A stretch of DNA of 64,000 nucleotides, taken from assembly GCA_963783835.1 (NCBI GenBank), contig CAWAOX010000014.1:238614-302613 (forward strand), given 5' to 3'. Origin of the DNA: an uncultured Actinomycetota bacterium. GTDB taxonomy: Bacteria > Actinomycetota > Thermoleophilia > RBG-16-64-13. Below, piece by piece: positions 24,115-41,314 of the stretch. Every line of letters begins with the position of its first letter. Within the stretch, counting starts at the first letter, position 1. The notes under the pieces were generated by a model. That model was given only the letters and a program-made list of their open reading frames with translations. It did no database searches and was not told the DNA's origin. Position numbers and translations under genes: made by a program.

Positions 24115-25326
24115 GTGGCCGAGAACCTCGTAACGTACTGCGTCGTGCATCAGCCGCGACGCATCAAGCTGCCCGCGCAGGTCATCCCGGCAGGCACGAA
24201 GCCGGAAGACATGGCGCCCTATCTGCTGGACGATGCCATGAATCGGCGCTACTTCGAGAAGGTGGCCCGCTGGTGCTACTACCCTGCCTGCCAGATGTTC
24301 CTGGACATGCTGGACGAGGGCTACAAGTTGGGCCTGGGGTTCTCTGTGAGCTTCCTGTGGCAGCTGAGCCGGTGGGACAGCCACTTGGCGGAGCGTTTCC
24401 GGCAGCTCGTGGCCCATCCCAACTGCGAGCTGGTCGGGGTCGAGCCCTACCACAGCTTCGCGTTTGCCATCGACATTGAGCTCTTCCGGACGGAGATGAA
24501 GCGCGGCAAGGACTTCGCCGAGGACTTCTTCGACAAAGAGATCCGGGTGACCGACACGACCGAGATGGTCATGAACAACGAGGTCTACTACGCGTTGCTG
24601 CAATCCGGCTATCGGGCCGGCATGCTCGACGGCCGCAAGTGGGTGCTCGGCTGGCGCGAGCCGACCCATCTCTACCGCTACGGAGGGCGCGACCTCGACC
24701 TCTTCTGCCGCCACCACGAACTCTCGGATGACGTCGGCTATCGCTTCAGCAACAAGACCTGGTCGGGATATCCCCTCCGCGCCGACGCCTACGCCGAGCA
24801 TCTGCGCAGCACCTGGGGCGACTTTGTCTTCATAGGGTGGGACTTCGAGACGTTCGGCGAGCATCACAGCATCGATACGGGCATCTTCGACTTCATGCGG
24901 GCGATGCCCGCCCAGCTCAAGCGGCAGGGCGTTCGCTGCCTCACACCCAGCGAAGCGGCCGATGAGTTCGGCAACGCGTCGCTGCCGGATCTGCCCCTGC
25001 CCGAGTTTGGCACCACCTGGGCCGGCTCCGGGGGAATGGAGTTCTTCCTGGGCAACGCCTCGCAGCAGGCGATCTTCAGGCTGATGCACTCGGTGCTCCA
25101 CAAGGCTCGTCTGACCGGTGACCCCACGTTGGTCGACCTCGCGCTCTGGCTGCTCCAGTCCGATAATCTGCACCTCATCCAGTGGGCGGGTCGCTCGGGC
25201 TCTGAAGCCGAGGTATCGGCATACTTCACACCGGACGAGTGGTGGGATCTTGGCCCGGACAGGATCCTCACCGAGCAGCAGCGTGTGTACACGAACTTCG
25301 TCCGGGCGATGGATGACCACGTCTGA
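24115..25326 (+). CDS. glycoside hydrolase family 57-like protein (short form)
   Basis: 'YCVVHQPRR' and 'WDFETFGEHH' resemble GH57 conserved regions; GTG start 9 nt after GT4 stop. Confidence 0.7.
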   Translation: MAENLVTYCVVHQPRRIKLPAQVIPAGTKPEDMAPYLLDDAMNRRYFEKVARWCYYPACQMFLDMLDEGYKLGLGFSVSFLWQLSRWDSHLAERFRQLVAHPNCELVGVEPYHSFAFAIDIELFRTEMKRGKDFAEDFFDKEIRVTDTTEMVMNNEVYYALLQSGYRAGMLDGRKWVLGWREPTHLYRYGGRDLDLFCRHHELSDDVGYRFSNKTWSGYPLRADAYAEHLRSTWGDFVFIGWDFETFGEHHSIDTGIFDFMRAMPAQLKRQGVRCLTPSEAADEFGNASLPDLPLPEFGTTWAGSGGMEFFLGNASQQAIFRLMHSVLHKARLTGDPTLVDLALWLLQSDNLHLIQWAGRSGSEAEVSAYFTPDEWWDLGPDRILTEQQRVYTNFVRAMDDHV

Positions 25327-27487
25327 GCCGATCCACGTAGCGTTCGTCTGGCACATGCACCAGCCGTATTACCGGTCCGCTCGGACCGGAGCTTTCCAGA
25401 TGCCCTGGGCCCGGCTCCATGCGCTGAAGGACTACCTCGACATGGTCGAGATCCTGGCCGACTATCCGACGATCCACCAGACCTTCAACCTCGTCCCTTC
25501 TCTCATCGAGCAACTGGAGGATTACGCGGCGGGCGGTGTGGCCGACGTGTACTGGGAGCACACGATGAAGCCGGCGACGGACCTCTCGCCGAGCGAACGG
25601 GCGTTCATCGTGGAGCGCATGTGCGAGCGTTCCGACCACCCCCGGGCCAAGTCTCACCCCCGCTACCTGGAACTCGCGAGGAAAAGGGAGTCGGAGGCAT
25701 GTCGGGGATGGGATGCGTGCGGCGGATCGTTCAGCGTCGACGAGCTTCGCGACCTCCAGATATGGTTCGATCTCGCCTGGTTCGACCCGACTCTGCTGGA
25801 AGCTCCGGCGCTCGCCCCCCTCGTCGAGCGCGGCCGGGACTACCGGGAAGAGGACAAGGTGACCCTCGCCCAGGTTGAGCGCGATATCCTGGCCGGAGTC
25901 ATCCCCGCGTACGGGGAGGCTGCGGCTCGGGGGCAGATCGAGCTGTCGACCTCTCCCTATTTTCATCCCATCCTCCCGCTACTCGCAAACAGCGACACGG
26001 CCCGCGTCGGCGCGGCCGACACGGTGTTGCCCCACCGGCGCTATGCCCACGCCGAGGATGCCTGGGAGCAGGTCCAGAGCGGCGCGGCCAAACACGAGCG
26101 GGTCTTCGGAACTCCACCCCGAGGGATGTGGTGCTCTGAGCAAGCGGTCGGAGAAGACGTGCTGCCGCTCTTGATGAGGGCCGGAATCGAGTGGACGATC
26201 AGCGACCAGACGGTCCTTTCCCGCTCGCTGTCGGGCAGTGCGGACCGCGGCGCTGCCGAACGCCTGGGAGAAGCCGGCCATGACCCCGCCTCCCCCTACG
26301 CGCCCTATCTGCTCCACCGGGAAGAGGGCGAAATGGCGATCGTCTTCCGCGATCATACCCTGTCGGACCTTATAGGCTTCGGCTACCAGAGTTGGGACTC
26401 GCGTGACGCCGCCCACGACCTGCTGGGTCGCATCCGCGCCATCGGGACGGTGGGCGCGCCGCTTGTCACCATCGCCCTCGACGGCGAGAACGCCTGGGAG
26501 CACTACCCGCACGACGGCCGGGACTTCCTTCGGTACCTTTACGAAGGCCTCGCGGCCGACCCGGCGATCCGCTGCGTGACGGTGTCCGAGTTCCTCGACC
26601 GGCATCCCGCCACCGAGAAGCTCGACTGGCTCCATACCGGCTCCTGGATAGGAGGCGATCTGCGGACCTGGAGCGGCGACCCCGGGCACAACACAGCCTG
26701 GGACCTCCTCCATGACGCGCGAGATCTCGCGGCCTCCCGCCGGCCGATGACCCGCGCGGAGGTGGACGGAGACCCGCTCGAAGCCGCCGAAGAGGCCTGG
26801 CGCCACATACTGATCGCCGAAGGAAGCGACTGGTTCTGGTGGTTCGGCGAGCATCACCACACCGAACTCGACCATGTGTGGGACCTGGAGTTCAGGCACC
26901 ACCTGCAGGAAGTCTACAGGTGTCTGGGGGAGCCCGTCCCCATCCGGCTTTATCTCCCCGTGCTGACTGAGGGCGCGACCACCCACCTGGCATCGCCGAC
27001 GGGGACGATCGAGCCGGTGATCGACGGCAGGCTGAGGAGCGAGGACGGCTGGGACGCCGCGGGGTCGCTGCCGCCGGATCACCCGTCGACCATGCAGCGG
27101 GCCGACGGGGCGCACATCGTCGAGGCGCGGTTTGGATGGGGGATTGAGCATCTCTATCTGCTGCTGATCCCTCGGGACGTGACGGACCTGGCGGGACTGG
27201 AACTGGAGTTGAGGGTCGGGCCTGCGGGAGACGAGGACCAGTCGGCGTTTCATATGACGCTCGCGGAGAATGGGCGGATGGAGGTAAGCTGCAGCCAGTG
27301 CGGACATCTGGCCGGTACTGCAAGAGGCGCATGGGGAGACGTGGTCGAGATCGCACTGCCCCTCGCCGTCCCCGCCCGGGCGGATGATGACCGGCTGGAT
27401 CTGGTTCTTCGCGCCGGGCGGCAAGGGATGACGGATCACGTGTTCCGCTCTGCCGGCCTGGCGTCTTTAGGAGAGGTTGAACCATGA
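25313..27487 (+). CDS. glycoside hydrolase family 57 enzyme (branching enzyme / alpha-amylase / glucanotransferase type) with C-terminal extension
   Basis: Signature 'VAFVWHMHQPYYR', 'GSDWFWWFGEHHH'; start placed at internal Met 'MTTSEPIHV', which overlaps the preceding gene's end by 14 nt. Confidence 0.8.
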   Translation: MTTSEPIHVAFVWHMHQPYYRSARTGAFQMPWARLHALKDYLDMVEILADYPTIHQTFNLVPSLIEQLEDYAAGGVADVYWEHTMKPATDLSPSERAFIVERMCERSDHPRAKSHPRYLELARKRESEACRGWDACGGSFSVDELRDLQIWFDLAWFDPTLLEAPALAPLVERGRDYREEDKVTLAQVERDILAGVIPAYGEAAARGQIELSTSPYFHPILPLLANSDTARVGAADTVLPHRRYAHAEDAWEQVQSGAAKHERVFGTPPRGMWCSEQAVGEDVLPLLMRAGIEWTISDQTVLSRSLSGSADRGAAERLGEAGHDPASPYAPYLLHREEGEMAIVFRDHTLSDLIGFGYQSWDSRDAAHDLLGRIRAIGTVGAPLVTIALDGENAWEHYPHDGRDFLRYLYEGLAADPAIRCVTVSEFLDRHPATEKLDWLHTGSWIGGDLRTWSGDPGHNTAWDLLHDARDLAASRRPMTRAEVDGDPLEAAEEAWRHILIAEGSDWFWWFGEHHHTELDHVWDLEFRHHLQEVYRCLGEPVPIRLYLPVLTEGATTHLASPTGTIEPVIDGRLRSEDGWDAAGSLPPDHPSTMQRADGAHIVEARFGWGIEHLYLLLIPRDVTDLAGLELELRVGPAGDEDQSAFHMTLAENGRMEVSCSQCGHLAGTARGAWGDVVEIALPLAVPARADDDRLDLVLRAGRQGMTDHVFRSAGLASLGEVEP

Positions 27488-28362
27488 AATCCCTGGATAT
27501 GATTACATTCCTTACCGATTTCGGCTGGTGCGGGGGGTACGTCGCGGCCTGCGAGGCCACCATCGCCCGCGTGAGCCCGAGCGCCCGGGTGCTGCACGTG
27601 TCGCACGAGGTGCCGATAGGCGACGTGGCGGCCGGAGCCCTTGTCCTGGCCAGGGTCGCCCCGCTGTGTCCCGAAGCGGTGCATCTAGGGGTCATCGACC
27701 CGGGCGTAGGCACTACGCGGCGTCCGGTCGCGCTTTCGGCCGCTCGCGGGGACATCCTGGTAGGACCCGACAACGGCCTTCTTATCGACGCAGCGGAAGC
27801 GCTCGGTGGCTTGAACCGAGCCTGGGCTCTTGACGTCGAGCGGGTCCGCATCCGTGCCGGTCTTCCGATGGAGGGGGTCTCGACCACTTTCCATGGGCGC
27901 GACCTGTTCGCGCCTGCTTCGGCGCTCCTGGCTGCCGGGGTAGATCCTGCCTCTCTCGGCCGGTCCGTGGATCTCGCCTCTCTGGTGCGGCTGGCCCCCA
28001 GTCCCGCCCAGGCGATCGGCGGCGGGGTATCCGCTCCCGTCATCGAGATCGACCGCTTCGGCAACGTCGGTCTCGGGCTGTCCTTTGCCGAACTCCCGGC
28101 CGGGCAAGGCGCAAACGCCGAGTTCCTCGTCGAGGTGGCCGGCGACGGTCTGCCCGAGTGGAGCGCCCGGATGGTGACCACCTACGGGGAGCTCTTCCCG
28201 GGCGAACTCGGCCTTATCAGGGACTCGTGGGGCCAGGCGGCTCTCGCCCTCAACGGTGCCAGCGCTTCCGAGTTCCTGGGCGTGAGGCGCGGCGTGACGG
28301 TCACGTTGACGCCCGCCACCGGCGGTAGAGCCGGCGGCGGGGCCGCGGAGGCGAAACGGTGA
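27484..28362 (+). CDS. SAM hydroxide adenosyltransferase (DUF62; fluorinase/chlorinase-like SAM hydrolase)
   Basis: 'ITFLTDFG...', 'VIDPGVGTTRRPVAL', 'LVGPDNGLL', 'FHGRDLFAPA' fit the DUF62 family; ATGA overlap with GH57 stop and GGAGAGG SD. Confidence 0.75.
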   Translation: MKSLDMITFLTDFGWCGGYVAACEATIARVSPSARVLHVSHEVPIGDVAAGALVLARVAPLCPEAVHLGVIDPGVGTTRRPVALSAARGDILVGPDNGLLIDAAEALGGLNRAWALDVERVRIRAGLPMEGVSTTFHGRDLFAPASALLAAGVDPASLGRSVDLASLVRLAPSPAQAIGGGVSAPVIEIDRFGNVGLGLSFAELPAGQGANAEFLVEVAGDGLPEWSARMVTTYGELFPGELGLIRDSWGQAALALNGASASEFLGVRRGVTVTLTPATGGRAGGGAAEAKR

Positions 28363-29627
28363 CGGGCAAACCAACACGGAGAAAGCCGAAGAACGGTCCG
28401 CCTGTATCACGACGCCGGGCTTCGGCAACCGGGTCGGCGGCCCACCCCCGGCGCTCGTCGACCTCGAGACCGCCGTCATCTCCGGGTCCATCGTCACCCC
28501 AGCGTCCGACACGTCGCGAGACCGCTACTCCACAAGCGCTGCTCGCCGCCTACCGTCCGGATCTCGCACAAGAGCTGGCGACCGCGGATGCGCCTTCGTT
28601 CCGGTACGCACAGGTGCTGGAGCACCTACTTCGCCATGCTGTAAGCCCATTCGCGGAGGCGAGCGTGCTGCCCGCGGACCTTCGGGGACGTCTGGACGCA
28701 TTGGGAGCCTCGGTCCTCTCCGTGGCGGCTACCCGAATAGGGACGGATGGTACGACCAAACTGCTACTCAGGGCCAGCGACGGATCTCACATCGAGTCGG
28801 TACTGATGCCCTACGGGCGCAGAGTGACGGTGTGCATCTCCAGCCAGGTCGGATGTGCCGTCGGCTGCGCGTTTTGCGCCACCGGCGCCATGGGATTCCG
28901 GCGCAATCTCTCGACGGCCGAGATCGTCGATCAAATGAGAGCGGCGGCGGGCGCCTCGGAGACAGGACAGCGGATCACCAACGTGGTCTACATGGGCATG
29001 GGTGAACCGTTGCTCAACCTGGGCACGGTCCTCGATTCCATCCGCGTGCTCACCTCCCCGCTTGGACTAGGCTTGGGGCATCGAGCTCTCTCGGTGTCCA
29101 CTGTCGGGATCCCAAGAGGCATATTGAGGCTGGGCCGCGCGGAGCCGCAGGTGAACCTCGCGATCTCGCTGCACGCCGCGGACGACGCGACCCGGGCGCT
29201 CCTTGTCCCCGAGGGTTACCGCCACCCACTCGCGGAGATTCTCGAGGCGGCCTGGGAGCACTTCGCGACCACAGGCCGTAAGCTTCTCGTAGAGTATGTC
29301 CTCCTCGCGGGGGTGAACGACTCGCTCGACGACGCGCGCCGCCTGGCGGCCCTTCTGCGGGGGCATGTCGTGGCGGTCAACCTCTTGAACTGGAACCCGG
29401 TCTGCCCAGAAGAGGTGGCGTCGGTCGCGGCCCCGGGGGGAACTGCGCGGAGGACGCCGGTGCGCAGTAGGCGCTTCTACCCTTCGTCACCCGCTGCGGT
29501 TGCCACGTTCCGCGCGGCTTTGCGGGCGGCCCATATCGAGACCGTCGTCAGGCAGAGCAAAGGAGCCGGCATCGAGGCGGCATGCGGTCAGCTGGCCGGC
29601 GCCGTCGGGTCGTACGAAAAGGATTAA
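28359..29627 (+). CDS. rlmN: 23S rRNA (adenine2503-C2)-methyltransferase RlmN-family radical SAM enzyme with ~55-aa R/S/P-rich N-terminal extension
   Basis: 'CISSQVGCAVGCAFCATGAMGFRRNLSTAEIVDQ' (CX3CX2C) and 'VYMGMGEPLLN'; GTG start overlaps DUF62 stop (GTGA); true start may lie downstream. Confidence 0.8.
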   Translation: MTGKPTRRKPKNGPPVSRRRASATGSAAHPRRSSTSRPPSSPGPSSPQRPTRRETATPQALLAAYRPDLAQELATADAPSFRYAQVLEHLLRHAVSPFAEASVLPADLRGRLDALGASVLSVAATRIGTDGTTKLLLRASDGSHIESVLMPYGRRVTVCISSQVGCAVGCAFCATGAMGFRRNLSTAEIVDQMRAAAGASETGQRITNVVYMGMGEPLLNLGTVLDSIRVLTSPLGLGLGHRALSVSTVGIPRGILRLGRAEPQVNLAISLHAADDATRALLVPEGYRHPLAEILEAAWEHFATTGRKLLVEYVLLAGVNDSLDDARRLAALLRGHVVAVNLLNWNPVCPEEVASVAAPGGTARRTPVRSRRFYPSSPAAVATFRAALRAAHIETVVRQSKGAGIEAACGQLAGAVGSYEKD

Positions 29628-29786: not shown

Positions 29787-30305
29787 TCAGTACTCGATTC
29801 CCTTCTTGGCCATGACTCCGTCATCAAAAGCGTGCTTCACGCTGCGCATTTCCGTCACGGTGTCGGCCGCGTCGATGAGCTCGGGGGCTGCGTCTCGCCC
29901 CGTGATGATGACGGACAGGCGGCTCGGCTTCGACCCGAGGAAGTCGAGTATCTCTTCAACAGAGACGTACCCCTCCGTGACCGCGTGATTCAGTTCATCC
30001 AGGATCAGAAGCTCATAGCGGTCGGAGGCCGCGAGCTCGCGGGAGAGTTCCCAGGCCTCGCGGGCAAGCGCCTGGGGTATCGACGGGTCATCGGCCAACC
30101 ACGTGAAGCCAGACCCGATCCGCCGCATCTCGATGTTCGGGCAATCCGCGAGTGCTACCGCTTCTCCGCAGCTCCAGGTGCCTTTGATGAACTGGACGAT
30201 CGCGACCTGTTGGCCGTGTCCAGACGCTCGTAATGCGGTGCCAAAAGCCGCCGTCGTCTTGCCTTTGCCATCCCCGGTGTTGACAATGATCCGCCCGTTG
30301 CTCAT
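29787..30305 (-). CDS. cobO: cob(I)yrinic acid a,c-diamide (corrinoid) adenosyltransferase
   Basis: 'IIVNTGDGKGKTTAAFGTALRASGHG...IVQFIKG', 'LILDELN' fit the CobO/BtuR family; start placed at internal Met 'MSNGRIIV' (30305) rather than ORF start 30404. Confidence 0.8.
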   Translation of the reverse strand: MSNGRIIVNTGDGKGKTTAAFGTALRASGHGQQVAIVQFIKGTWSCGEAVALADCPNIEMRRIGSGFTWLADDPSIPQALAREAWELSRELAASDRYELLILDELNHAVTEGYVSVEEILDFLGSKPSRLSVIITGRDAAPELIDAADTVTEMRSVKHAFDDGVMAKKGIEY

Positions 30306-30315
30306 CGTCTTCGAT

Positions 30316-30705
30316 CTATGGAACGCTCGGGGGCGGCTGCGGGGGAACCAACCGGCTGTTCGATAGTTGCCCGAGCAAGATGCCCACAGAGCCCGGTGCC
30401 GCAAGCAGCGCCAGCATCACGTCGGGGGTGAAGGGCGCAAAGACCACGGTGAGCCCTTCGAATTCGATGCTCATGGTGTCCAGAGAGCCGGCCTTCACCT
30501 GCTGCCCGAAGCGTTGTGCGCTCGCGACGGTGTCGATCGCCAGAGCGGCGATGCTCGCCACGTCCACTCCCTCGCGGGCCATGCTGCTGACGATCAGGCC
30601 TTGGTCCGACACCAGGAGGGCCGCCTCGATACCCGGGATGGCGAGATACCCTCCCAGTGCTTGCTTGAGCGGGTCCGTCCCCGCCTGCCGGTCGTCCCCA
30701 GTCAT
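30316..30705 (-). CDS. Roadblock/LC7 (MglB-like) domain protein
   Basis: 'GIEAALLVSDQGLIVSS...ASIAALAIDTVASAQRF...LDTMSIEFEGLTVVFAPF' matches the Roadblock/LC7 fold. Confidence 0.7.
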   Translation of the reverse strand: MTGDDRQAGTDPLKQALGGYLAIPGIEAALLVSDQGLIVSSMAREGVDVASIAALAIDTVASAQRFGQQVKAGSLDTMSIEFEGLTVVFAPFTPDVMLALLAAPGSVGILLGQLSNSRLVPPQPPPSVP

Positions 30706-31065
30706 TCAGCTCACCTCTTCGATGCCCGCTCTAAGAAGTTGCAGCCGTATCAGCTGCGCGGAACGCTCGGCTTCCGCTGCTTGACGATAACCTATCTGGA
30801 GTCCCTGCGCGAGCCCCGCAAGCTCGGATACGAACATCCCGGTGCGGGCGAGGGCTCGCTCCGGGTCCTGGCTGGGTGCAGTGGGCCCGGCAAACCCCGC
30901 AGACCCAGAATCCGCGCTCCCACGCAACTCTCCGTCCGGCCAACTGATGATCGTGTCGCCCGACAAGAAGAGACTGTTGGTCTCCGCCATGGTGAGGCCG
31001 ACCCTCACGGTCACCAGATGCTCACCCGCACCCGGATGAAGACTGTGGGTGACGGAGAAGCCCAA
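30706..31065 (-). CDS. hypothetical small protein packed between SIMPL and Roadblock genes
   Basis: ORF only; stop directly abuts Roadblock ATG; no recognisable motifs; start may instead be the internal Met at 30990. Confidence 0.4.
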   Translation of the reverse strand: MGFSVTHSLHPGAGEHLVTVRVGLTMAETNSLFLSGDTIISWPDGELRGSADSGSAGFAGPTAPSQDPERALARTGMFVSELAGLAQGLQIGYRQAAEAERSAQLIRLQLLRAGIEEVS

Positions 31066-31075
31066 CGCCGGAGGA

Positions 31076-31918
31076 TTAACGCTTCAGCGCGTAGGTGACG
31101 GTGACCGTAGCGGTAACGTCCAGACTTCCGCCGCTTACCGGTGGCTCCACGACCTTTGCCGAATCGGTAGCTCCACCCATCGCGTACATGGGCGATACCG
31201 GCATTTGGACGGTCCCCTCGGTCATGGCCAGGACCTCGCCAACGCCGGCTCCCTCCGCGGCGGCCAAGCTTTCCGCCTTGGCCCGCGCGTTGACTGCTGC
31301 CTGCGTGAGGGCATCGTTCACGGCCTGGCTATCGTCCCTCAACCGCCACTCCGGCCCGGACACCTGCGTCGCGCCGGTCTCGACGCCCGCGGCCAGGACC
31401 TTTGCCACGGCGGGGGCGTCCTTGAGGGTGACTCTGATACTGTTCTGCGCCCGATATCCGGTTAGGGTCTCTTTGCCCGTGGTGGGATCGTACGTCCGGA
31501 CGGGATAGACCGTGATGCTTGACGTCTGGATAGCCGATTCCGGGATGCCGTCGCTCTTCAGCCGATCGAGCATCTTCTGGCTCTGCAGCGACGTAGCGTC
31601 CATCGCCGCGGGGGCGGTGGCTGCATCGTTTTCGACGGTCAGCACTACGACTGCCTCGTCGGGAGGGCTGGTCACCGTCGCCTGACCGCTGACGGTTACC
31701 GTATTGGCAGGCCCCGCGGCCGACAGTACCGCGGCCGCAGTGGCTGGGCTCGACAAATCGCCCCCGCAACCGGCTAGCGCCACCGACACTGCGACCAGCG
31801 CCAGAACCAGGCCCGCGTAGACGAGGGTCTTGTGTTTGGTGGCGCCGGCAGAACGGGGCTCCCCTCCCGAATACTGCCGCACGTCACCGCTTGCCCCTGT
31901 TCTACCTCTCATGTGCAC
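31076..31918 (-). CDS. SIMPL-domain (DUF541) lipoprotein
   Basis: Signal peptide with lipobox 'LAGCGG'; SIMPL-like pattern 'TVSGQATV...VVLTVEN...ITVYPVRTYD...GYRAQNSIRVTL'. Confidence 0.7.
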   Translation of the reverse strand: MHMRGRTGASGDVRQYSGGEPRSAGATKHKTLVYAGLVLALVAVSVALAGCGGDLSSPATAAAVLSAAGPANTVTVSGQATVTSPPDEAVVVLTVENDAATAPAAMDATSLQSQKMLDRLKSDGIPESAIQTSSITVYPVRTYDPTTGKETLTGYRAQNSIRVTLKDAPAVAKVLAAGVETGATQVSGPEWRLRDDSQAVNDALTQAAVNARAKAESLAAAEGAGVGEVLAMTEGTVQMPVSPMYAMGGATDSAKVVEPPVSGGSLDVTATVTVTYALKR

Positions 31919-34392: not shown

Positions 34393-36459
34393 TCAGCTGT
34401 CGGGAGCCGGGGTTCGGCCGGCAGCGGGGGCCCGGTCAGCAGCAGGGGCCCGGTCGGACAACGGTGCCGACCCGGCGGCCTGGGCCCCCTCGGGGTTCGG
34501 AGATTCCTCTCCCCGCCCGTCGTTCGGCTGGGACCGCAGGGACCGGTAGAGGTGCACCAGAAGGACGGATATATCAGCGGGAGAGACCCCGGGCACCCGC
34601 GAGGCTTGTCCCAGGGTCGCCGGCCGCAACCGGCTCAGCTTGTCCTTGGCTTCGTATGTCAACCCCTCGAGAGGCCAGTACTCGAAATCGTCCGGGACTG
34701 GAAGAGTCTCGGTGGCACGATGGCGTCGGATCTCGGCGAGTTGCCGGCGAATGTACCCCTCGTACCGCGCCTGGATGGCCAACTGCTCCACTACGTCTGA
34801 AGGAGCCGACGAGATGCGCGCGCGATCGTCGTCGGATAGCATCTGCAGCAGGTCCTCGAACGAGACCTGAGGCCGGCGCAGGAGCCTTCCCGCGGATTGC
34901 GACTCTTCCAGGCGGGTGGTGCCGAGAGACTCGAGCAGATTCTGGCTCTCCTCGCCGCCCCGCACCTGGATACTCTCCAGCAATTCCGTGTATTCCGCCA
35001 GCTTGCGCTGCTTCTCTTCTACCATCTCGAGCTGGCCCGGTGTCAGAAGACCGAGTTCGTAGCCGAGCGAGGCCAGGCGCTCCGCGGCGTTGTCGTGGCG
35101 CAAGATGAGCCGGTACTCGGCACGAGAAGTGAACATCCGGTAGGGCTCGTCCACTCCCTTTGTCACGAGATCATCGATCAACACGCCGATGTACGCCTGG
35201 TCCCGGCGAAGGACGAACGGGGCCTCTTCGCGCGCATGAAGGGCCGCATTGATGCCCGCCATCAGCCCCTGGGCCGCGGCTTCCTCGTAGCCCGACGTCC
35301 CGTTGAGTTGCCCCGCGCAGAACAGCCCGGCCACCGCCTTAGTCTGGAGCGCAAGAGTGAGTTGTTGCGGCGGAAGATAGTCATATTCCACTGCGTATCC
35401 AGGACGGACCAGACGGGCGTTTTCGAGACCAGGAGTCGCTTTGATGATCTTCTCCTGGACAAAGACGGGCAGACTGGTGGTGAGCCCTTGCAGATACATC
35501 TCCCGGGTCGTGATCCCCTCGGGCTCGACGAACACCGGGTGCTGGTCCTTTTCCGGGAAGTTGATCAACTTCCGGTCGATGGAGGGACAGTATCGTGGAC
35601 CTTTGCCGCTCACAGAGCCGGTGCGTAGCGGGCTGAGATGGAGATGTTTGGAAACCACTTCGTGCGTAGCCGCAGTCGTGTGGGTCAAAAAGCAGGGGAC
35701 CTGACGGCGCGGAGCCGGAGTCTCCCAGTGTGAGAAGGACAAGGCGACCGAATCTCCCTCCTGGAGAATCATCCGCTCAGCATTGATGGTCGTCCCATCG
35801 ATGCGCGGTGGCGTCGCCGACTGAAAACGATCCAACTCCAACCCTGCGGCAAGAAGGCTTTCGGACAGACGGAGAGCAGGTAGTTCCCCCACCCGCCCCG
35901 CGGCGAAACTGCGGTCCCCGATCACAATCTTGCCCCGGAGAAAGGTGCCCGTCGCGAGGACGAGTGAGCGGCACTTGAGGTGCCGGCCGTCGGCAAGCCC
36001 GACCGCTCTGATTGTTTCACGTGAAACATCAAGGGCGACTGCTTCTCCCTGAACGATGTCCAGATTGGCCGTTCTTGACAGGATCACCTTCATCCAGTCT
36101 TCGTACAAGCGCTTGTCGGCCTGAGCCCGAAGCGCCCGGACCGCGGGGCCCTTGGAGGTATTGAGCATCTTGAGTTGGATGAACGCGCGGTCCGTGTTGC
36201 GCCCTTGTTCGCCCCCCAGCGCGTCCACCTCGCGCGTAAGTTGCCCCTTACCGACGCCCCCGACGGCCGGATTGCACGGCATCAGCGCGATGTTGTCAAG
36301 GTGCAGCGTGACCATCGCGGTCCGGCAACCCATCCGGGCGGCTGCGAGAGCCGCCTCGCAGCCGGCGTGGCCGCCACCGATGACCACCACGTCGTACGAC
36401 CACGTGTCTTGCCTCGAACCCGGATGTCTTCTTGCCGCTACCGCGCTCACGCGCCGCAT
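34393..36459 (-). CDS. mnmG: tRNA uridine-5-carboxymethylaminomethyl modification enzyme MnmG (GidA) with S/P/A-rich C-terminal tail
   Basis: 'YDVVVIGGGHAGCEAALAAARMG', 'MPCNPAVGGVGKGQLTREVDALGG', 'GLFCAGQLNGTSGYEEAAAQGLMAGINAA'. Confidence 0.9.
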   Translation of the reverse strand: MRRVSAVAARRHPGSRQDTWSYDVVVIGGGHAGCEAALAAARMGCRTAMVTLHLDNIALMPCNPAVGGVGKGQLTREVDALGGEQGRNTDRAFIQLKMLNTSKGPAVRALRAQADKRLYEDWMKVILSRTANLDIVQGEAVALDVSRETIRAVGLADGRHLKCRSLVLATGTFLRGKIVIGDRSFAAGRVGELPALRLSESLLAAGLELDRFQSATPPRIDGTTINAERMILQEGDSVALSFSHWETPAPRRQVPCFLTHTTAATHEVVSKHLHLSPLRTGSVSGKGPRYCPSIDRKLINFPEKDQHPVFVEPEGITTREMYLQGLTTSLPVFVQEKIIKATPGLENARLVRPGYAVEYDYLPPQQLTLALQTKAVAGLFCAGQLNGTSGYEEAAAQGLMAGINAALHAREEAPFVLRRDQAYIGVLIDDLVTKGVDEPYRMFTSRAEYRLILRHDNAAERLASLGYELGLLTPGQLEMVEEKQRKLAEYTELLESIQVRGGEESQNLLESLGTTRLEESQSAGRLLRRPQVSFEDLLQMLSDDDRARISSAPSDVVEQLAIQARYEGYIRRQLAEIRRHRATETLPVPDDFEYWPLEGLTYEAKDKLSRLRPATLGQASRVPGVSPADISVLLVHLYRSLRSQPNDGRGEESPNPEGAQAAGSAPLSDRAPAADRAPAAGRTPAPDS

Positions 36460-37958
36460 CCTTGCTGGCGCTCGTCGGCACCTGGAGAGAGGTCAACCGC
36501 GGGCCACCCCAACGACCGCGCGATATCTCGCGCGGCCCGGACTCCCGACGAAAGGCTGGCTGCGTAGTCCTGGGCTCCCGCCGATCGCCCCACGACCCAG
36601 ACCGGCCCCGGCTCTCCGCCGCACACCATTCTGCCGGTGTCGCTGACTCCGACTACCGTCAGTCCTATGACAGTCGAGGGCATCCGGCTCGCGATCGGTC
36701 CCACGTCGCCATGCGCGACCGCAGCCATCTCGCCGGCAAACAAGCCCCCGGGAGCCAGGTACACCTCGGATGTCGCCGCCCCGTCAGGGGAGAGCGTGGG
36801 GAGTCTTGCCGGTTCCCCCTGCGCGCTGATGCCCGTCATCATCACCATTCGATCGACCCTGAGATCCGCCTGCCAGTGCGGAGCAGGGGGATAGTCGACC
36901 GGCCAGCAGTCCAGCCCTGACCCTGAGCCCGCCGGGAGGAGCGGCTCTTCCGACAGTATGGGAGAAGCGAGTTCGCCGAGGCCCTCATGGCTGGTGTCAA
37001 GTCCGCCGAGGCCTTCGTGGTTTCTCGCGACTTCGCTGCCGTCCGAATACGCGCTGTGCGCCTCGGAGCCCGGCGGACGCGGAGCCCGATGGTCGCCCCC
37101 GACACCGTCGTCAACCCGGCCCTGCGCCGCCGACCAGCCCTGGTCCGCCAACCAGCCCTGCGCCCTTGCGCTTCGCACGGAGGCGCGCGGCCCCACTTCC
37201 ATGGCCACTTCCCGGAACTCCGCTCCCAGCGTTTCGAGGGCAGCGCACAGTCCTGCCGACGCGGGCTCCCCGTAACGCCCCCGGTGCGCAGCATCGGTGC
37301 CCGCATTGATGGGGGCCCCAAGGCTCAGTCCGACGGCCACGACCGCGGCGTCCGCCTCGAATACTTCCCCGAATATAGTCTCCACCTGGACCCGCTGCTC
37401 GGGCGCGCCGCAGACCCGTCGCTCAGGCACGTCGGCCGCCTGCTCTGGCGTGCGTCCCGCAAGTCCCCCGTCTGACCGGGCAGCCGCCTTTTCAGGCAAC
37501 CCCCGCTCGGCACCGCTACCGCTGCCGACGAGACGAACATCGGTGACGAATCCTTGCCGGAACTCGAGCCGGGCAATGCCTTCCAGAGCTCTCTTCGTTT
37601 CGACGCTGATCTTGCGGCGGTCGATGTTGAGGATCGCCTCGCCGCTCGCAGGCTTCGTCGCAGCCTGGAGCCAGACGCTGCGCAGAGGTAGCGGCAACCC
37701 CCGCAGCGCCTCCTCGGCCCCCCGCCACCCTTCGCCGCTGCCGATCAGGTCAGGTCCGTAGGCAGGCAGCCCGACCCTATCCATCGCACTGTTCATGAGG
37801 GTGACGTGCAGCCCGGCCGAGGCAAGCGCGGCCGCGCACGCGCAGCCCGACACACCGGCGCCGACCACGATCACCGTGGGAGGGGCTCCCCGCCCCTCGG
37901 CCGCCCCTCGGGCGCCGGGCGCTACCTCCCCAACTCTGCCCTCGCTCAGACCGTCCAT
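36447..37958 (-). CDS. divergent FAD/NAD(P)-binding oxidoreductase with MnmG/TrmFO-like motifs, long low-complexity insertions
   Basis: 'TVIVVGAGVSGCACAAALASAGLHVTLMNS' Rossmann motif; C-terminal 'GLFAGEM...' and 'PVWVVGRSAGAQDYAASLSSGVRAARDIA' resemble the MnmG 'GLFxAGQxNGTxGYEEAAAQG' region; start abuts mnmE stop, end overlaps mnmG start. Confidence 0.55.
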   Translation of the reverse strand: MDGLSEGRVGEVAPGARGAAEGRGAPPTVIVVGAGVSGCACAAALASAGLHVTLMNSAMDRVGLPAYGPDLIGSGEGWRGAEEALRGLPLPLRSVWLQAATKPASGEAILNIDRRKISVETKRALEGIARLEFRQGFVTDVRLVGSGSGAERGLPEKAAARSDGGLAGRTPEQAADVPERRVCGAPEQRVQVETIFGEVFEADAAVVAVGLSLGAPINAGTDAAHRGRYGEPASAGLCAALETLGAEFREVAMEVGPRASVRSARAQGWLADQGWSAAQGRVDDGVGGDHRAPRPPGSEAHSAYSDGSEVARNHEGLGGLDTSHEGLGELASPILSEEPLLPAGSGSGLDCWPVDYPPAPHWQADLRVDRMVMMTGISAQGEPARLPTLSPDGAATSEVYLAPGGLFAGEMAAVAHGDVGPIASRMPSTVIGLTVVGVSDTGRMVCGGEPGPVWVVGRSAGAQDYAASLSSGVRAARDIARSLGWPAVDLSPGADERQQGCGA

Positions 37959-39749
37959 CTACTTCCCCAGGCAGAATCGACTGAATATCTCGTCCAGAAG
38001 GTCCTGCGTCAGGTCCTCGCCGGTGATGCGGCCGAGCGCCTGGACCGCCCCCCGGATGTCCTCGCAGATCAGTTCCTCGTCGCTGCCACGCGAAGTCGCG
38101 CTCAGCGCCGCTTCAGTTCTATCGAAAGCCTCTCCCACCAACCCGCGCTGGCGCTCGCTCGCGAGGACCGGCTCCTCGAGGTGAAGCCCCTCGCCGCCAC
38201 TGATGATGCGCTGGACCACATCTCGGAGATCGTCGACACCCTCGCCAGTCATCGCGGACACGGGACATATGTTCCAAGCGGCTGCTCCACACTCGGGCCC
38301 GTTACCCAAGTAAATCCCGACAGCCTCGGCTCTCTCGTCCCTGTCGGCGACCAGGTCGATCTTGTTGCAGACGACGATCGAGCGAGCCCGATCGAGTCCA
38401 TGGACGAGTTCGCGGTCTCCGTCGTCCCAGGGCCTCGAGATGTCGACGACGGCAAGCACGAGATCCGCTTGTTCCATGGCCCTTACCGAACGCTCGACCC
38501 CCAGACGCTCGATGTGATCGCCGCCCGCCCGTATGCCCGCAGTGTCGACAAGATGGATGGGGATACCTCCGATCTCCATGAGCTCCTCGACGGTGTCGCG
38601 GGTCGTCCCAGGGATATCCGACACGATCGCCCTCTCCCGCATGAGCAAAGCGTTGAGGAGTGAGCTCTTGCCTACGTTTGGTTTGCCCACGATTGCCGTT
38701 CGCACGCCCTGCTCGAGGGCCCGACCGACGAACGCAGTCCGGAGCAGCCGGTCGAGATCTGCCCGGGCGGTCAGCAGCCCTTCGCCCAGACCGGCCCAGT
38801 CAAGTGGGTCAACATCCTGGTCGGAGAAGTCCACCGTCGCCTCGATCTGCGCCAGCAAGCCGAGCAGAGAGCGCCTCACCGCGCGCAGCCTGTCGGACAG
38901 CCCACCCTCCAGCTGGCGCAGGGACGCGCGCAGCGCGCCGGAGCTGCGCGCGGCCACGATCGCGGCCACGCTCTCCGCTTGGGCGAGGTCGATCCGCCCG
39001 TTCAGAAACGCCCGCCGCGTGAATTCTCCCGGTTCGGCGAGACGTGCGCCAGAACCCGTGAGCAGCCTAAGCACCGCTCTTTGCGCTGCGATCCCGCCGT
39101 GGCAGTGCACTTCGACTATGTCATCGCGCGTGTATGAGTGCGGGCCGCGCATCACGGCCAACAGGACCTCGTCGACGTCTTCCCCGACACGGGGATCGAA
39201 GATATGACCGTACAGAAGGCGGTGCGTCTCGTCGGGCCTGAGCGCCGCGCCCCGTCCCTGCCGGAACACCGATGCGGCGATGCTCACCGCTGCCGGGCCG
39301 CTCATCCTCACGATCCCGATCGCCCCCACCCCACTGGCGGTAGACACGGCCACGATCGTGTCCTCACCCCAGGGGGACGTGGCAAGGCCTGCGGTACTCG
39401 TCGCCGGCATACCCGCGGATCCGCGCGTCGGCATAGCGGACACGGCTGCCGGCGTGTCCGGTCCAGCGGGCCCAGGCGAGGGCGAGCGTCGGATATCAGA
39501 GTCGTCGGAGATCATTGGCAGCGCCGGACTGTGTTCGAAAGGGTCAGAAGAGAGCCAAGATGATGCCAGAAAAACCTCTGCTCGACCATGCTCGCCGCGT
39601 CGCCGTAGAGTTCCTCCCAGCTGTCGGCCGCCTTGCCTCTGAGCGCCTCGGCCCGCCGAGCCGCGCCGCGGCTCGGTCCCCGCCTGCCTAGCGCCGTGAA
39701 TCGCGGAGCGGCGAAATGACCACGCAACGGTTCGGTTCCCGGCCCTCAC
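37959..39749 (-). CDS. mnmE: tRNA modification GTPase MnmE (TrmE); ORF carries a ~110-130-aa basic/low-complexity N-terminal extension and the true start is probably an internal Met (M79/M106/M114)
   Basis: 'DTIVAVSTASGVGAIGIVRMSG', G-domain 'IVGKPNVGKSSLLNAL...DTAGIR', C-terminal 'CxGK' ('FCLGK'). Confidence 0.85.
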   Translation of the reverse strand: MRAGNRTVAWSFRRSAIHGARQAGTEPRRGSAGRGAQRQGGRQLGGTLRRRGEHGRAEVFLASSWLSSDPFEHSPALPMISDDSDIRRSPSPGPAGPDTPAAVSAMPTRGSAGMPATSTAGLATSPWGEDTIVAVSTASGVGAIGIVRMSGPAAVSIAASVFRQGRGAALRPDETHRLLYGHIFDPRVGEDVDEVLLAVMRGPHSYTRDDIVEVHCHGGIAAQRAVLRLLTGSGARLAEPGEFTRRAFLNGRIDLAQAESVAAIVAARSSGALRASLRQLEGGLSDRLRAVRRSLLGLLAQIEATVDFSDQDVDPLDWAGLGEGLLTARADLDRLLRTAFVGRALEQGVRTAIVGKPNVGKSSLLNALLMRERAIVSDIPGTTRDTVEELMEIGGIPIHLVDTAGIRAGGDHIERLGVERSVRAMEQADLVLAVVDISRPWDDGDRELVHGLDRARSIVVCNKIDLVADRDERAEAVGIYLGNGPECGAAAWNICPVSAMTGEGVDDLRDVVQRIISGGEGLHLEEPVLASERQRGLVGEAFDRTEAALSATSRGSDEELICEDIRGAVQALGRITGEDLTQDLLDEIFSRFCLGK

Positions 39750-40452: not shown

Positions 40453-41314
40453 CGTCCGGCCGTTGGCTCTTGCTACCTGTTGCTTGCCCTTTTGCTGCCG
40501 TTTTTTGCCCACTGGTCTTGCCTCCAGTCTTCTTAGCCGGCTGTGTGGACGAGGCCTTCGGCTTGGCCGGTGCAGTCCCCGTCTTGGCAGGCGCCTTTGG
40601 CGGCGCCTTCGCCGGAGTCTTGTCCTTCACCGAAGATGGCGCCACATGCACAGGCACCGGCATCATCCTTTCTGCAACGTATTGCTGAGCTATGGTCCAC
40701 AAGTTAGATGTGAACCAATAGATGAACAAACCCGCAGGCCACTTACCAATGAACATGAAGATACCAACGATGATCGGCATCATATAGGCGATTAGCTTCT
40801 GTTGGCCGACACTCTTTCTTGACATCTGCCATGAAGCCACAAACTGGCTGGCAATGTAAAGAAACATCAAAATGATGTCGAACTTGGTGATGTCCTGTAT
40901 CCACAACCAACTTACGCTGGGGTTTGGAAACGCAAACTCTCCGCCTGGTTGCCCCTGCTCCTGCAACATGTAGTACAAGCCGAAGAAGACCGGCATCTGC
41001 AGCAGGAGCGGGAGGCAGGAGCCGAAGGGGCTCACCTTGTTCTCCTGGTAGAACTCCATGGTCTTCTGATTCAGGAGTTGCTTGTTGTCCTTGTACTTCT
41101 CCTGCAGAGCCTTGATCTCGGGCGCCAGCGCCTGCATAGCGCGCATGCTCTTGATCTGTCGCCACGTGAGGGGGATGAGGATGATCCGTACGATGATAGT
41201 GAGCACCACGATCGACCACGACCAGCTGACGCCCCACCCGTGAATGAACTCCAGGATGTAGAAGAAGAAATCGCTGAGAGGGGATATGAGATCCGAGAGC
41301 CACTCCATGGTCAC
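40421..41314 (-). CDS. yidC: membrane protein insertase YidC (short actinobacterial/Gram-positive type) with K/P/A-rich C-terminal tail
   Basis: 'ILIPLTWRQIKSMRAMQALAPEIKALQEKY', 'GSCLPLLLQMPVFFGLYYML'. Confidence 0.9.
   Translation of the reverse strand: MTMEWLSDLISPLSDFFFYILEFIHGWGVSWSWSIVVLTIIVRIILIPLTWRQIKSMRAMQALAPEIKALQEKYKDNKQLLNQKTMEFYQENKVSPFGSCLPLLLQMPVFFGLYYMLQEQGQPGGEFAFPNPSVSWLWIQDITKFDIILMFLYIASQFVASWQMSRKSVGQQKLIAYMMPIIVGIFMFIGKWPAGLFIYWFTSNLWTIAQQYVAERMMPVPVHVAPSSVKDKTPAKAPPKAPAKTGTAPAKPKASSTQPAKKTGGKTSGQKTAAKGQATGSKSQRPDGGTGGSKSSS

Follow-up and report, generated by a model that had tools for sequence, protein, structure and literature searches.

The stretch of DNA analysed here, referred to as the window, comprises 64,000 nucleotides (nt) from an uncultured Actinomycetota bacterium (Thermoleophilia, RBG-16-64-13; assembly GCA_963783835.1, contig CAWAOX010000014.1, positions 238,614 to 302,613) and represents the chromosomal origin region. 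Its plus strand carries dnaA-dnaN-yaaA-recF-DUF721-gyrB-gyrA and its minus strand rnpA-yidD-yidC-jag-mnmE-X-mnmG-rsmG-parA-parB, where X is our label for an open reading frame (ORF) of 503 amino acids (aa) with an ATG start (36447..37958, minus strand). In Bacillus subtilis, gidA/mnmG follows directly after thdF/mnmE, and the window order is this standard Gram-positive arrangement plus one extra gene. Few enzymes of tRNA modification are as conserved as MnmE and MnmG, whose homologues in humans, GTPBP3 and MTO1, are encoded by mitochondrial disease genes. The conserved gene between mnmE and mnmG points to a third component of the wobble-uridine pathway in one group of uncultured Actinomycetota. 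A third component in a non-standard arrangement had been proposed in a first reading of the sequence (the original prediction), and this view is supported by homology, by the fold and by the occupancy of the gap in 20 of 20 related loci.

The coordinates of the X ORF were confirmed, and our reading of the junctions agrees with the original one, in which the ORF fills the mnmE-mnmG gap with its start abutting the mnmE stop and its stop overlapping the mnmG start. A Shine-Dalgarno-like sequence, GGGGAAG, lies a short way 5′ of the X ATG, and the candidate mnmG starts are ATG 36459 and GTG 36450, the latter producing a GTGA overlap with the X stop. The G+C content at third codon positions (GC3) of X is 0.77, matching that of its neighbours, with a coding signal along the entire ORF, and no convincing terminator was found inside mnmE-X-mnmG. 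Gene X is transcribed with mnmE and mnmG and translationally coupled to both. With regard to a possible MnmE-X read-through fusion, X lies in the mnmE frame with one stop between the two in 7 of 15 loci, compared to about five expected by chance.

A conserved gene family in a fixed position

A word-indexed search of 5.8 billion proteins returned 110 homologues of X, with E values down to 0, which together with the match to the Pfam GIDA model (E 6e-15) places the gene far beyond chance. The closest non-identical relative shares 63% identity, lengths are mostly 370-530 aa, and the proteins are unnamed or labelled 'hypothetical protein', 'Glucose inhibited division protein A' or 'FAD-dependent oxidoreductase [Thermoleophilia bacterium]' (FAD, flavin adenine dinucleotide). 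Among 1.84 billion cluster representatives, a profile search run exhaustively gave only 156 clusters at E<=1e-30, and the reading frame stays intact across the roughly 156 clusters (50% identity). In two alignments, of 40 and of 48 members, dozens of columns distributed over the full length are invariant or nearly so. The conserved blocks are GAGVSGCACA, NSAxDRVGLPxYGPD, VDRRxVSIETKRxLE, FRQG, ETxFGE...AVGLSLGG and GGRYGE in the N-terminal part, followed by EVGPR, WPxxYPPAPHW, SPDGxATxExY, SR and VWVxGRAAGAxDYxxSLxSG. The core is confidently foldable, with predicted template modelling scores (pTM) of 0.79 for the AlphaFold2 (AF2) model of X and of 0.89. The X family is real, conserved and narrow; its hosts are all uncultured and belong to a soil and sediment group of Actinomycetota.

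We compared 20 loci, 14 from species-representative genomes, three carrying the most divergent members that could be looked up and three on long contigs picked via MnmG alone. The 14 representative loci come from metagenome-assembled genomes (MAGs) labelled Thermoleophilia, Gaiellales, Actinomycetes or Actinomycetota, except for one 2.2-kb contig binned as Gemmatimonadota, and show the order yidC-jag-mnmE-X-mnmG-rsmG-parA. The same context was found for the three most divergent members and on the three MnmG-chosen contigs (one of 3.56 Mb); the latter were taken from among the MnmG matches listed, which were all at least 74% identical, and each of the three contigs checked carries X. In 20 of 20 loci each flank that was present and identifiable was mnmE upstream and mnmG downstream, even with X members of as little as 32% identity, and no family member was seen in any other context. 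The mnmE-mnmG gap is thus occupied by orthologues in relatives, the check that had been suggested at the outset. The X stop overlaps the mnmG start as (A/G)TGA in most loci (L001, L002, L004-L006, L010, L012, L014, L016, L017 and L020). Within the block X is the fastest-evolving gene: in the same loci, identity is 32-43% for X, 65-83% for MnmG and 49-72% for MnmE; on the 235,591-bp contigs, for example, the X homologue shows 59% and MnmG 88% identity.

A few loci showed irregularities. The 2.2-kb mnmE-X contig binned as Gemmatimonadota (L011, JBDHKE010000331.1) encodes an MnmE 62% identical to that of the window and is probably a mis-binned Actinomycetota fragment. In the divergent locus L019 (6284-6679) the gene calls include a 131-aa ORF without Pfam match that sits between X and mnmG and overlaps the start of the latter; this may be a spurious call or local junction variation. 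In three long-read MAGs (L009, L013, L014) yidC, mnmE, X, mnmG or rsmG are split into tblastn pieces in different frames; since the neighbouring genes are fragmented as well, this reflects assembly frameshifting and not decay of X.

Relationship of X to MnmG and other flavoproteins

X belongs to the GidA/MnmG/TrmFO superfamily, as it matches the GIDA model (PF01134) above threshold (55.6 bits versus a cut-off of 22.1, over model positions 1-197 of 391 only) and contains both a Rossmann GxGxxG and a C-terminal G..G...Y..A...G motif. Full-length homology to MnmG was recovered by hhalign and by a profile search against 3cp8. Global profile-profile alignment with the N-terminal region of MnmG by hhalign gave a probability of 99.5% (E 5e-22, 408 columns), and MnmG structures were the top Foldseek matches for two independent models, in one case with E 3e-20 and a template modelling score (TM) of 0.70. 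X fails all MnmG-specific and TrmFO-specific tests, scoring 34.6 bits with the MnmG equivalog model TIGR00136 (cut-off 524.85) and 15.9 bits versus 262 with the TrmFO models (TIGR00137/NF003739), the latter over aa 28-56 only. TrmFO itself, the folate/FAD-dependent tRNA m5U54 methyltransferase (PDB 3G5Q), was matched by Foldseek only at E 4e-9 and TM 0.44, and its catalytic cysteines are absent from X. The initial description of X as a divergent MnmG/TrmFO-like FAD protein therefore holds for MnmG but not for TrmFO.

With MnmG/GidA (PDB 3CP8, 3CES, 2ZXI, 9HIP), the enzyme of 5-carboxymethylaminomethyl (cmnm5) synthesis at tRNA U34, which works with MnmE, GTP, CH2-THF, NADH and glycine, X shares the superfamily, the operon and a whole-chain fold over the FAD and insertion domains. 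The motifs common to both are GxGxxG, (Q/V)DR, GGRxGE, (E/S)P(E/D)G..E.Y, the R of RPGY and the G..G...Y at the end of the FAD domain. However, sequence identity is only ~20%, and insertion domain 2 is partly replaced in X by a variable disordered region. The predicted GxGxxG is present as GAGVSG (aa 33-38), G33 and G35 corresponding to E. coli MnmG G13 and G15, and 140 of the 147 members that have the motif read GAGVSGCAC or GGGVSGCAC. On the basis of these motifs X would bind FAD. At the C-terminus, where two FAD-domain-end motifs had been claimed, only one exists: aa 458-479, RSAGAQDYAASLSSGVRAARDI, the conserved counterpart of MnmG 'AGQINGTxGYEEAAAQG'. No second copy was found in the C-terminal half of X, and aa 400-422 are poorly conserved.

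In E. coli MnmG, the formation of cmnm5U depends on C47 and C277 both in vivo and in vitro, although the mutants still reduce FAD (PMC10723064). The segment that had been likened to 'LxxDxxxMxCNP' is indeed homologous (aa 56-70), but its cysteine is a tyrosine: in three independent alignments X has Tyr or Phe at the C47 position and Gly at that of N48 (Tyr67 and Gly68 in X itself), the C47 column across the family being Y33/F6/S1. At the position of Cys277 hhalign places the invariant Pro357, HMMER aligns this stretch otherwise, and no alignment gives a conserved cysteine; W352, P357 and P360 are conserved, and (Y/F)PPAP occurs in 75 of 112 motif matches. A CNP or RYCP motif was found in none of 209 X-family proteins, and the sole conserved cysteines of the family, C39 and C41, both lie in the dinucleotide-binding helix.

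Using the functionally important MnmG residues listed in Table S3 of PMC12397908, we found that X keeps those related to fold or FAD (E. coli G13, G15, G156, R204 and, judged by the matching motifs, Y308 and Y377), as well as D100, R101 and R174 (D113 and R114 of X correspond to D100 and R101). It replaces or deletes N48, G52/53, K56, G67/68, R96 and, in the stretch T199-P202, T199 and T201. The 'MnmG-specific motif 1' (GPRYCPSIEDK, residues 273-287) contacts the C-terminal swivel helix of MnmE (PMC12397908); in the hhalign placement of this motif, a low-confidence stretch, R275 and K283 fall on variable X positions. The C-terminal helical domain of MnmG (~230 aa; PF21680 and PF13932) gave no match in X, which ends ~25 aa past the FAD-domain motif. 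Deletion of MnmG residues 550-629 severely weakens MnmE binding (PMC4027165). The original prediction was correct about the absence of this domain, but what it had called the tRNA-binding domain is mainly the one that docks MnmE. tRNA and MnmE both bind to a positive patch around the FAD pocket of MnmG (PMC12397908). For the conserved core of X the median net charge is -10 (isoelectric point (pI) 5.1), whereas the corresponding part of MnmG from the same genomes has +5 (pI 8.9). X thus retains the FAD-binding scaffold without the machinery for cysteine-dependent C5 chemistry and canonical MnmE docking, and probably without electrostatic tRNA capture.

The X profile scores MnmG of its own clade at 40-63 bits and Chlorobium MnmG at 71 bits; a recent tandem duplication of the adjacent mnmG was therefore rejected as the origin of X. 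An oxidase of the DAO/ThiO/MnmC1 type was likewise rejected, because only the GxGxxG stretch matches, below threshold (DAO PF01266, 20 bits versus 27.9 over aa 29-55 only; MnmC_Cterm, 24 versus 174.2; ThiO, 15.2 versus 250.8), and no such fold ranks near the top. The counter-evidence that the original prediction had named for itself, a best match to DAO/ThiO combined with absence from this position in relatives, was thus not found. The closest fold to the FAD core of X is that of the Thermus thermophilus 2CUL protein ('GidA-related protein, probable oxidoreductase', 232 aa), which consists of the FAD core only, whereas X has in addition an MnmG-like insertion domain of ~180 aa with the SPDG..E.Y, SR and WPxxYPPAPHW motifs; X as a small 2CUL-type protein, with a single FAD domain of ~230 aa and no insertion domain, was accordingly rejected. 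Genes of the Thermus type, retrieved with a chimeric query built on two 2CUL sequence fragments that returned truncated proteins, lie amid Cas2, transposase, HhH-GPD and NAD-synthase genes and not by mnmE/mnmG (two contigs, one sample). On one metagenome contig (L024 5001-6957, and also L023) a 2CUL-family gene beside Cas2 and HhH-GPD glycosylase genes, with no mnmEG linkage, is split by a Transposase_mut insertion into pieces of 95 and 131 aa.

X had been described as very diverged with long G/A/S/R-rich insertions, and two such stretches, insertions A and B, were found, with 7-9% identity and low model confidence. Both are lineage-variable, unconserved and present in less than half of the relatives; insertion A, for instance, is missing from P0006, P0018 and P0047. 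Family members of 550-766 aa contain GIDA and larger insertions only, with no extra domain. Tandem DNA repeats occur in insertion B (18 nt x 2.6 at 37119-37164) and in the N-terminal tail of X (11 nt x 2.5 at 37890-37916), and a near-duplicate peptide, HEGLGGL/HEGLGEL, is found at aa 323-338. This suggests that the variable insertions grow by replication slippage.

Table 1. Features of gene X and its two neighbours, in window coordinates (aa numbering of protein X; Ec, E. coli MnmG; pLDDT, predicted local distance difference test)
Feature	Position	Strand	Basis or remarks
mnmE, maximal ORF	37959..39749	-	TIGR00450 388 bits over aa 137-596; C-terminal FCLGK swivel-helix motif
mnmE stop / X start junction	37956..37961	-	TAG 37959-37961 abuts ATG 37956-37958; zero intergenic bases; relatives show comparable junctions
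Gene X, whole: cysteine-less, helical-domain-less MnmG/GidA-superfamily flavoprotein	36447..37958	-	GIDA match, homologue family, hhalign, AF2
aa 28-45 TVIVVGAGVSGCACAAAL: Rossmann strand 1, GxGxxG, dinucleotide-binding helix	37824..37877	-	Columns invariant or near-invariant
aa 56-70 NSAMDRVGLPAYGPD: equivalent of MnmG 'MSCNPA' motif	37749..37793	-	HMMER versus 3cp8 and E. coli MnmG, hhalign, hmmalign, census
aa 111-136 NIDRRKISVETKRALEGIARLEFRQG: most conserved block	37551..37628	-	D113, R114, R115, K122, E126, R134, Q135, G136 invariant
Insertion A, aa 152-188: low-complexity, predicted disordered	37395..37505	-	pLDDT about 51-54; 7% identity; 38% occupancy
aa 193-214 ETIFGEVFEADAAVVAVGLSLG: second FAD-fold motif, = MnmG 'VVLTxGTFL'	37317..37382	-	Alignments; G210 = Ec G156
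aa 226-231 RGRYGE: = MnmG 'GGRAGD/E' loop	37266..37283	-	Alignments; R228 = Ec R174
Insertion B, aa 267-334: low-complexity, replaces much of MnmG insertion domain 2	36957..37160	-	pLDDT <50; 9% identity
aa 352-362 WPVDYPPAPHW: conserved Pro/aromatic motif	36873..36905	-	hhalign sets it opposite 'MnmG-specific motif 1' (GPRYCPSIEDK)
aa 389-400 LSPDGAATSEVY: = MnmG 'FLEPEGxxTxExY'	36759..36794	-	D392, E398 invariant; Y400 = Ec Y308 by motif
aa 454-479 WVVGRSAGAQDYAASLSSGVRAARDI: C-terminal FAD-binding motif, = MnmG 'FFAGQINGTxGYEEAAAQG'	36522..36599	-	Y465 = Ec Y377 by motif
X stop / mnmG start overlap	36447..36459	-	X TGA 36447-36449 within mnmG start region
mnmG, canonical	34393..36459	-	TIGR00136 781 bits; full GIDA domain and both C-terminal domains

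Possible roles of X in wobble-uridine modification

The mechanism of MnmEG is still debated, in particular the methylene-group transfer from MnmE to the MnmG flavin, the asymmetry of the MnmG dimer and the role of the cysteines. The neighbouring MnmE, with its FCLGK motif, and MnmG, in which both catalytic cysteine motifs are present (MPCNPA and GPRYCPS), are fully canonical, so that X is an addition to the system and not a replacement. Moreover, having lost the cysteines, most of the other residues important for MnmG activity or tRNA binding and the MnmE-docking domain, X can be neither a second MnmG nor a methylene transferase of the TrmFO type. X may be seen as a lineage-restricted flavoprotein that shares its descent with the MnmG catalytic core, i.e. 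the FAD domain and the insertion domains. As the most likely reading we tentatively propose, with somewhat less than even confidence, that it serves as an accessory flavoprotein partner of MnmG in the MnmE-MnmG machinery modifying position 5 of the wobble uridine (xm5U34). In such a configuration, the acidic 'half-MnmG' X would pair with the basic canonical MnmG, either via the shared FAD-domain fold or on the positive patch of MnmG; the resulting asymmetry of the assembly would be built in and the cysteine-dependent chemistry carried out by MnmG alone. The MnmG dimer is already functionally asymmetric, with FAD in one protomer, one tRNA per dimer and negative cooperativity (PMC12397908, PMC4027165), and this asymmetry speaks for a partner role, as does the charge complementarity between X and MnmG. 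The stop/start coupling onto mnmG, which suggests co-production, and a pattern of losses resembling that of a non-catalytic paralogous subunit also speak for it. X would then associate physically with MnmG or MnmE, act within the xm5U34 pathway and could influence the modification state of the tRNA.

Several points weigh against a partner function. X is no closer to MnmG of its own clade than to Chlorobium MnmG, so that it is not a recent duplicate that would have inherited the MnmG dimer interface, and its FAD core is nearest to that of 2CUL, whose gene is not linked to mnmEG. The strongly conserved FAD motifs together with an equally well conserved, remodelled pocket rim (P65, Y67, G68, R93, W96, WPxxYPPAPHW) look more like those of a ligand- or substrate-binding enzyme than of an inert scaffold. 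The adjacent MnmG is highly conserved and canonical (65-92% identity), and nothing suggests that it depends on a partner. Finally, one would expect operon membership and coupling just as much if X were an enzyme of its own in this pathway. A stronger version, in which X is an obligatory, non-catalytic third subunit of an MnmE-X-MnmG machine, replacing one protomer of the MnmG dimer or capping the positive patch at its FAD pocket, appears unlikely to us. If true, the half-of-sites asymmetry, which is only transient in E. coli MnmEG, would be hard-wired, and such a three-protein machine would be the first natural variant of an MnmEG architecture otherwise treated as invariant in the literature found.

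Alternatively, X could work on the MnmEG product as an active FAD-dependent tailoring oxidoreductase, for example by oxidative removal of the carboxymethyl group to convert cmnm5U into 5-aminomethyluridine (nm5U). The gene is locked into the pathway operon, the FAD motifs are invariant, and the pocket-lining elements are remodelled, strongly conserved and rich in aromatic residues (Y67, W96, Y229, W352, Y356, H361, W362). X would reuse an MnmG-type pocket that places position 5 of U34 by the flavin N5 for a chemistry that needs neither a cysteine nor MnmE, and MnmE-independent, non-C5 chemistry would permit exactly the observed loss of the cysteines and of the MnmE-docking domain. The demodification step is performed by unrelated enzymes across bacteria (MnmC1, MnmL/YhcC), and some producers of 5-methylaminomethyluridine (mnm5U) have no known enzyme for it (PMC13228596); X would thus be a third non-orthologous solution beside MnmC1 and the radical-S-adenosylmethionine (radical-SAM) protein MnmL/YhcC. 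A function analogous to that of MnmC1 (MnmC(o)), the FAD-dependent cmnm5U oxidoreductase of the same pathway, might account for a cysteine-free flavoprotein independent of MnmE in this operon. However, MnmC1 is of the DAO/glycine-oxidase type, and X has no likeness to such amine oxidases, including the MnmC and DAO models, past the GxGxxG stretch. An acidic core that has lost the mapped tRNA-binding and functional residues of MnmG also counts against a tailoring activity, as does the rapid evolution of a gene with variable disordered insertions. The 20 ORFs scanned that flank the operon contain no mnmC, mnmM or mnmL, nor any nm5U methyltransferase (MnmM/MnmC2) or further xm5U gene; this is a weak argument, since the scan covered neither the other window ORFs nor the remaining genome. 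On the whole we consider a tailoring activity the main rival of a partner function, though a somewhat less probable one.

It is improbable that X, as a flavoenzyme or flavin-handling protein, acts on a substrate that has nothing to do with tRNA and resides in this origin-proximal operon for reasons of history or expression only. The 2CUL-like FAD domain, from a gene without mnmEG linkage, the loss of nearly all MnmG-specific functional residues and the acidic character of X would fit such a role, but the gene lies in all loci exactly between the partner genes, its stop/start overlapping onto mnmG, in members as divergent as those mentioned above, and was found nowhere else. In addition, the whole-chain fold and several motifs of the active-site region (DRR, GGRxGE, SPDG..E.Y) are still MnmG-like. 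It is very improbable that X is an MnmG isozyme, or that it methylates some other uridine as a folate/FAD-dependent RNA methyltransferase of the TrmFO/RlmFO kind; judged from the sequence, this reading is largely refuted, since the chemistry of MnmG and TrmFO relies on catalytic cysteines (PMC10723064; PMC5954106), X has no conserved cysteine outside the dinucleotide-binding helix, and it remains far below both model cut-offs, with the poor structural match to TrmFO. A functionless, decaying partial duplicate of mnmG, as might be thought from the fast evolution of X and its low-complexity insertions with slippage repeats, is hardly credible and was rejected on the conservation pattern: the frame is intact throughout the family, invariant columns extend over the whole length of a foldable core, X is not especially similar to the adjacent mnmG, and loci with fragmented X have fragmented neighbours (L009).

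In the literature found, MnmEG is treated as a strictly two-component system, while X is a conserved, operon-locked third MnmG-like flavoprotein, implying either an undescribed accessory subunit or a new xm5U34 tailoring enzyme. Our literature search returned no publication on a third gene in the mnmE-mnmG pair, on the function of 2CUL or on tRNA modification in Thermoleophilia, nor a published residue-level description of the MnmG dimer interface. A 2018 survey listed MnmG in none of 74 Actinobacteria genomes in COG (PMC5954106), which indicates that the deep-branching group itself is under-studied for this pathway. A functional assignment would replace the 'FAD-dependent oxidoreductase' or 'hypothetical protein' label on ~150 protein clusters, within the limits of a narrow family, of hosts that have yet to be cultured and of a function that we infer.

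Other features of the origin region

The longest mnmE ORF has 596 aa, starts at GTG 39749 and overlaps the end of jag, with a low-complexity N-terminus of 128 aa preceding the MnmE domains, which begin at aa 129. The MnmE proteins called in related loci have 421-497 aa, and the true start is probably ATG 39434 or 39410. At the other end of the operon, the MnmG C-terminus (34393-34530) forms a Pro/Ala/Arg-rich tail of ~45 aa past the last Pfam domain, …APLSDRAPAADRAPAAGRTPAPDS. Low-complexity tails seem to be common in the origin-region proteins of this genome, the C-terminus of yidC being alike. Within yidC (40500-41250) the GC content drops to ~0.53 from 0.62-0.70 in the surroundings, with a GC3 of 0.73 and a GC content at first codon positions (GC1) of 0.48, which looks like the effect of a membrane-protein amino-acid composition and not of foreign DNA.

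Further downstream of parB (29787-31918, minus strand) follow genes for a SIMPL-domain protein, an unknown protein of ~100 aa, a Roadblock/LC7-domain protein and cob(I)yrinic acid a,c-diamide adenosyltransferase, and then a radical-SAM gene. This string recurs in the relatives L020-L022 and is hence part of the origin-region synteny of the clade. On the plus strand, three ORFs with overlapping stop and start codons occupy 25118-29627. One encodes a 789-aa protein without an NCBIfam match; the other two encode an (R)-S-adenosyl-L-methionine hydrolase-like protein (150 bits, under cut-off) and an RlmN/Cfr-like radical-SAM RNA methyltransferase (289.9 bits versus a cut-off of 290). It is unusual for a SAM hydrolase and an RlmN paralogue to occur as a pair.

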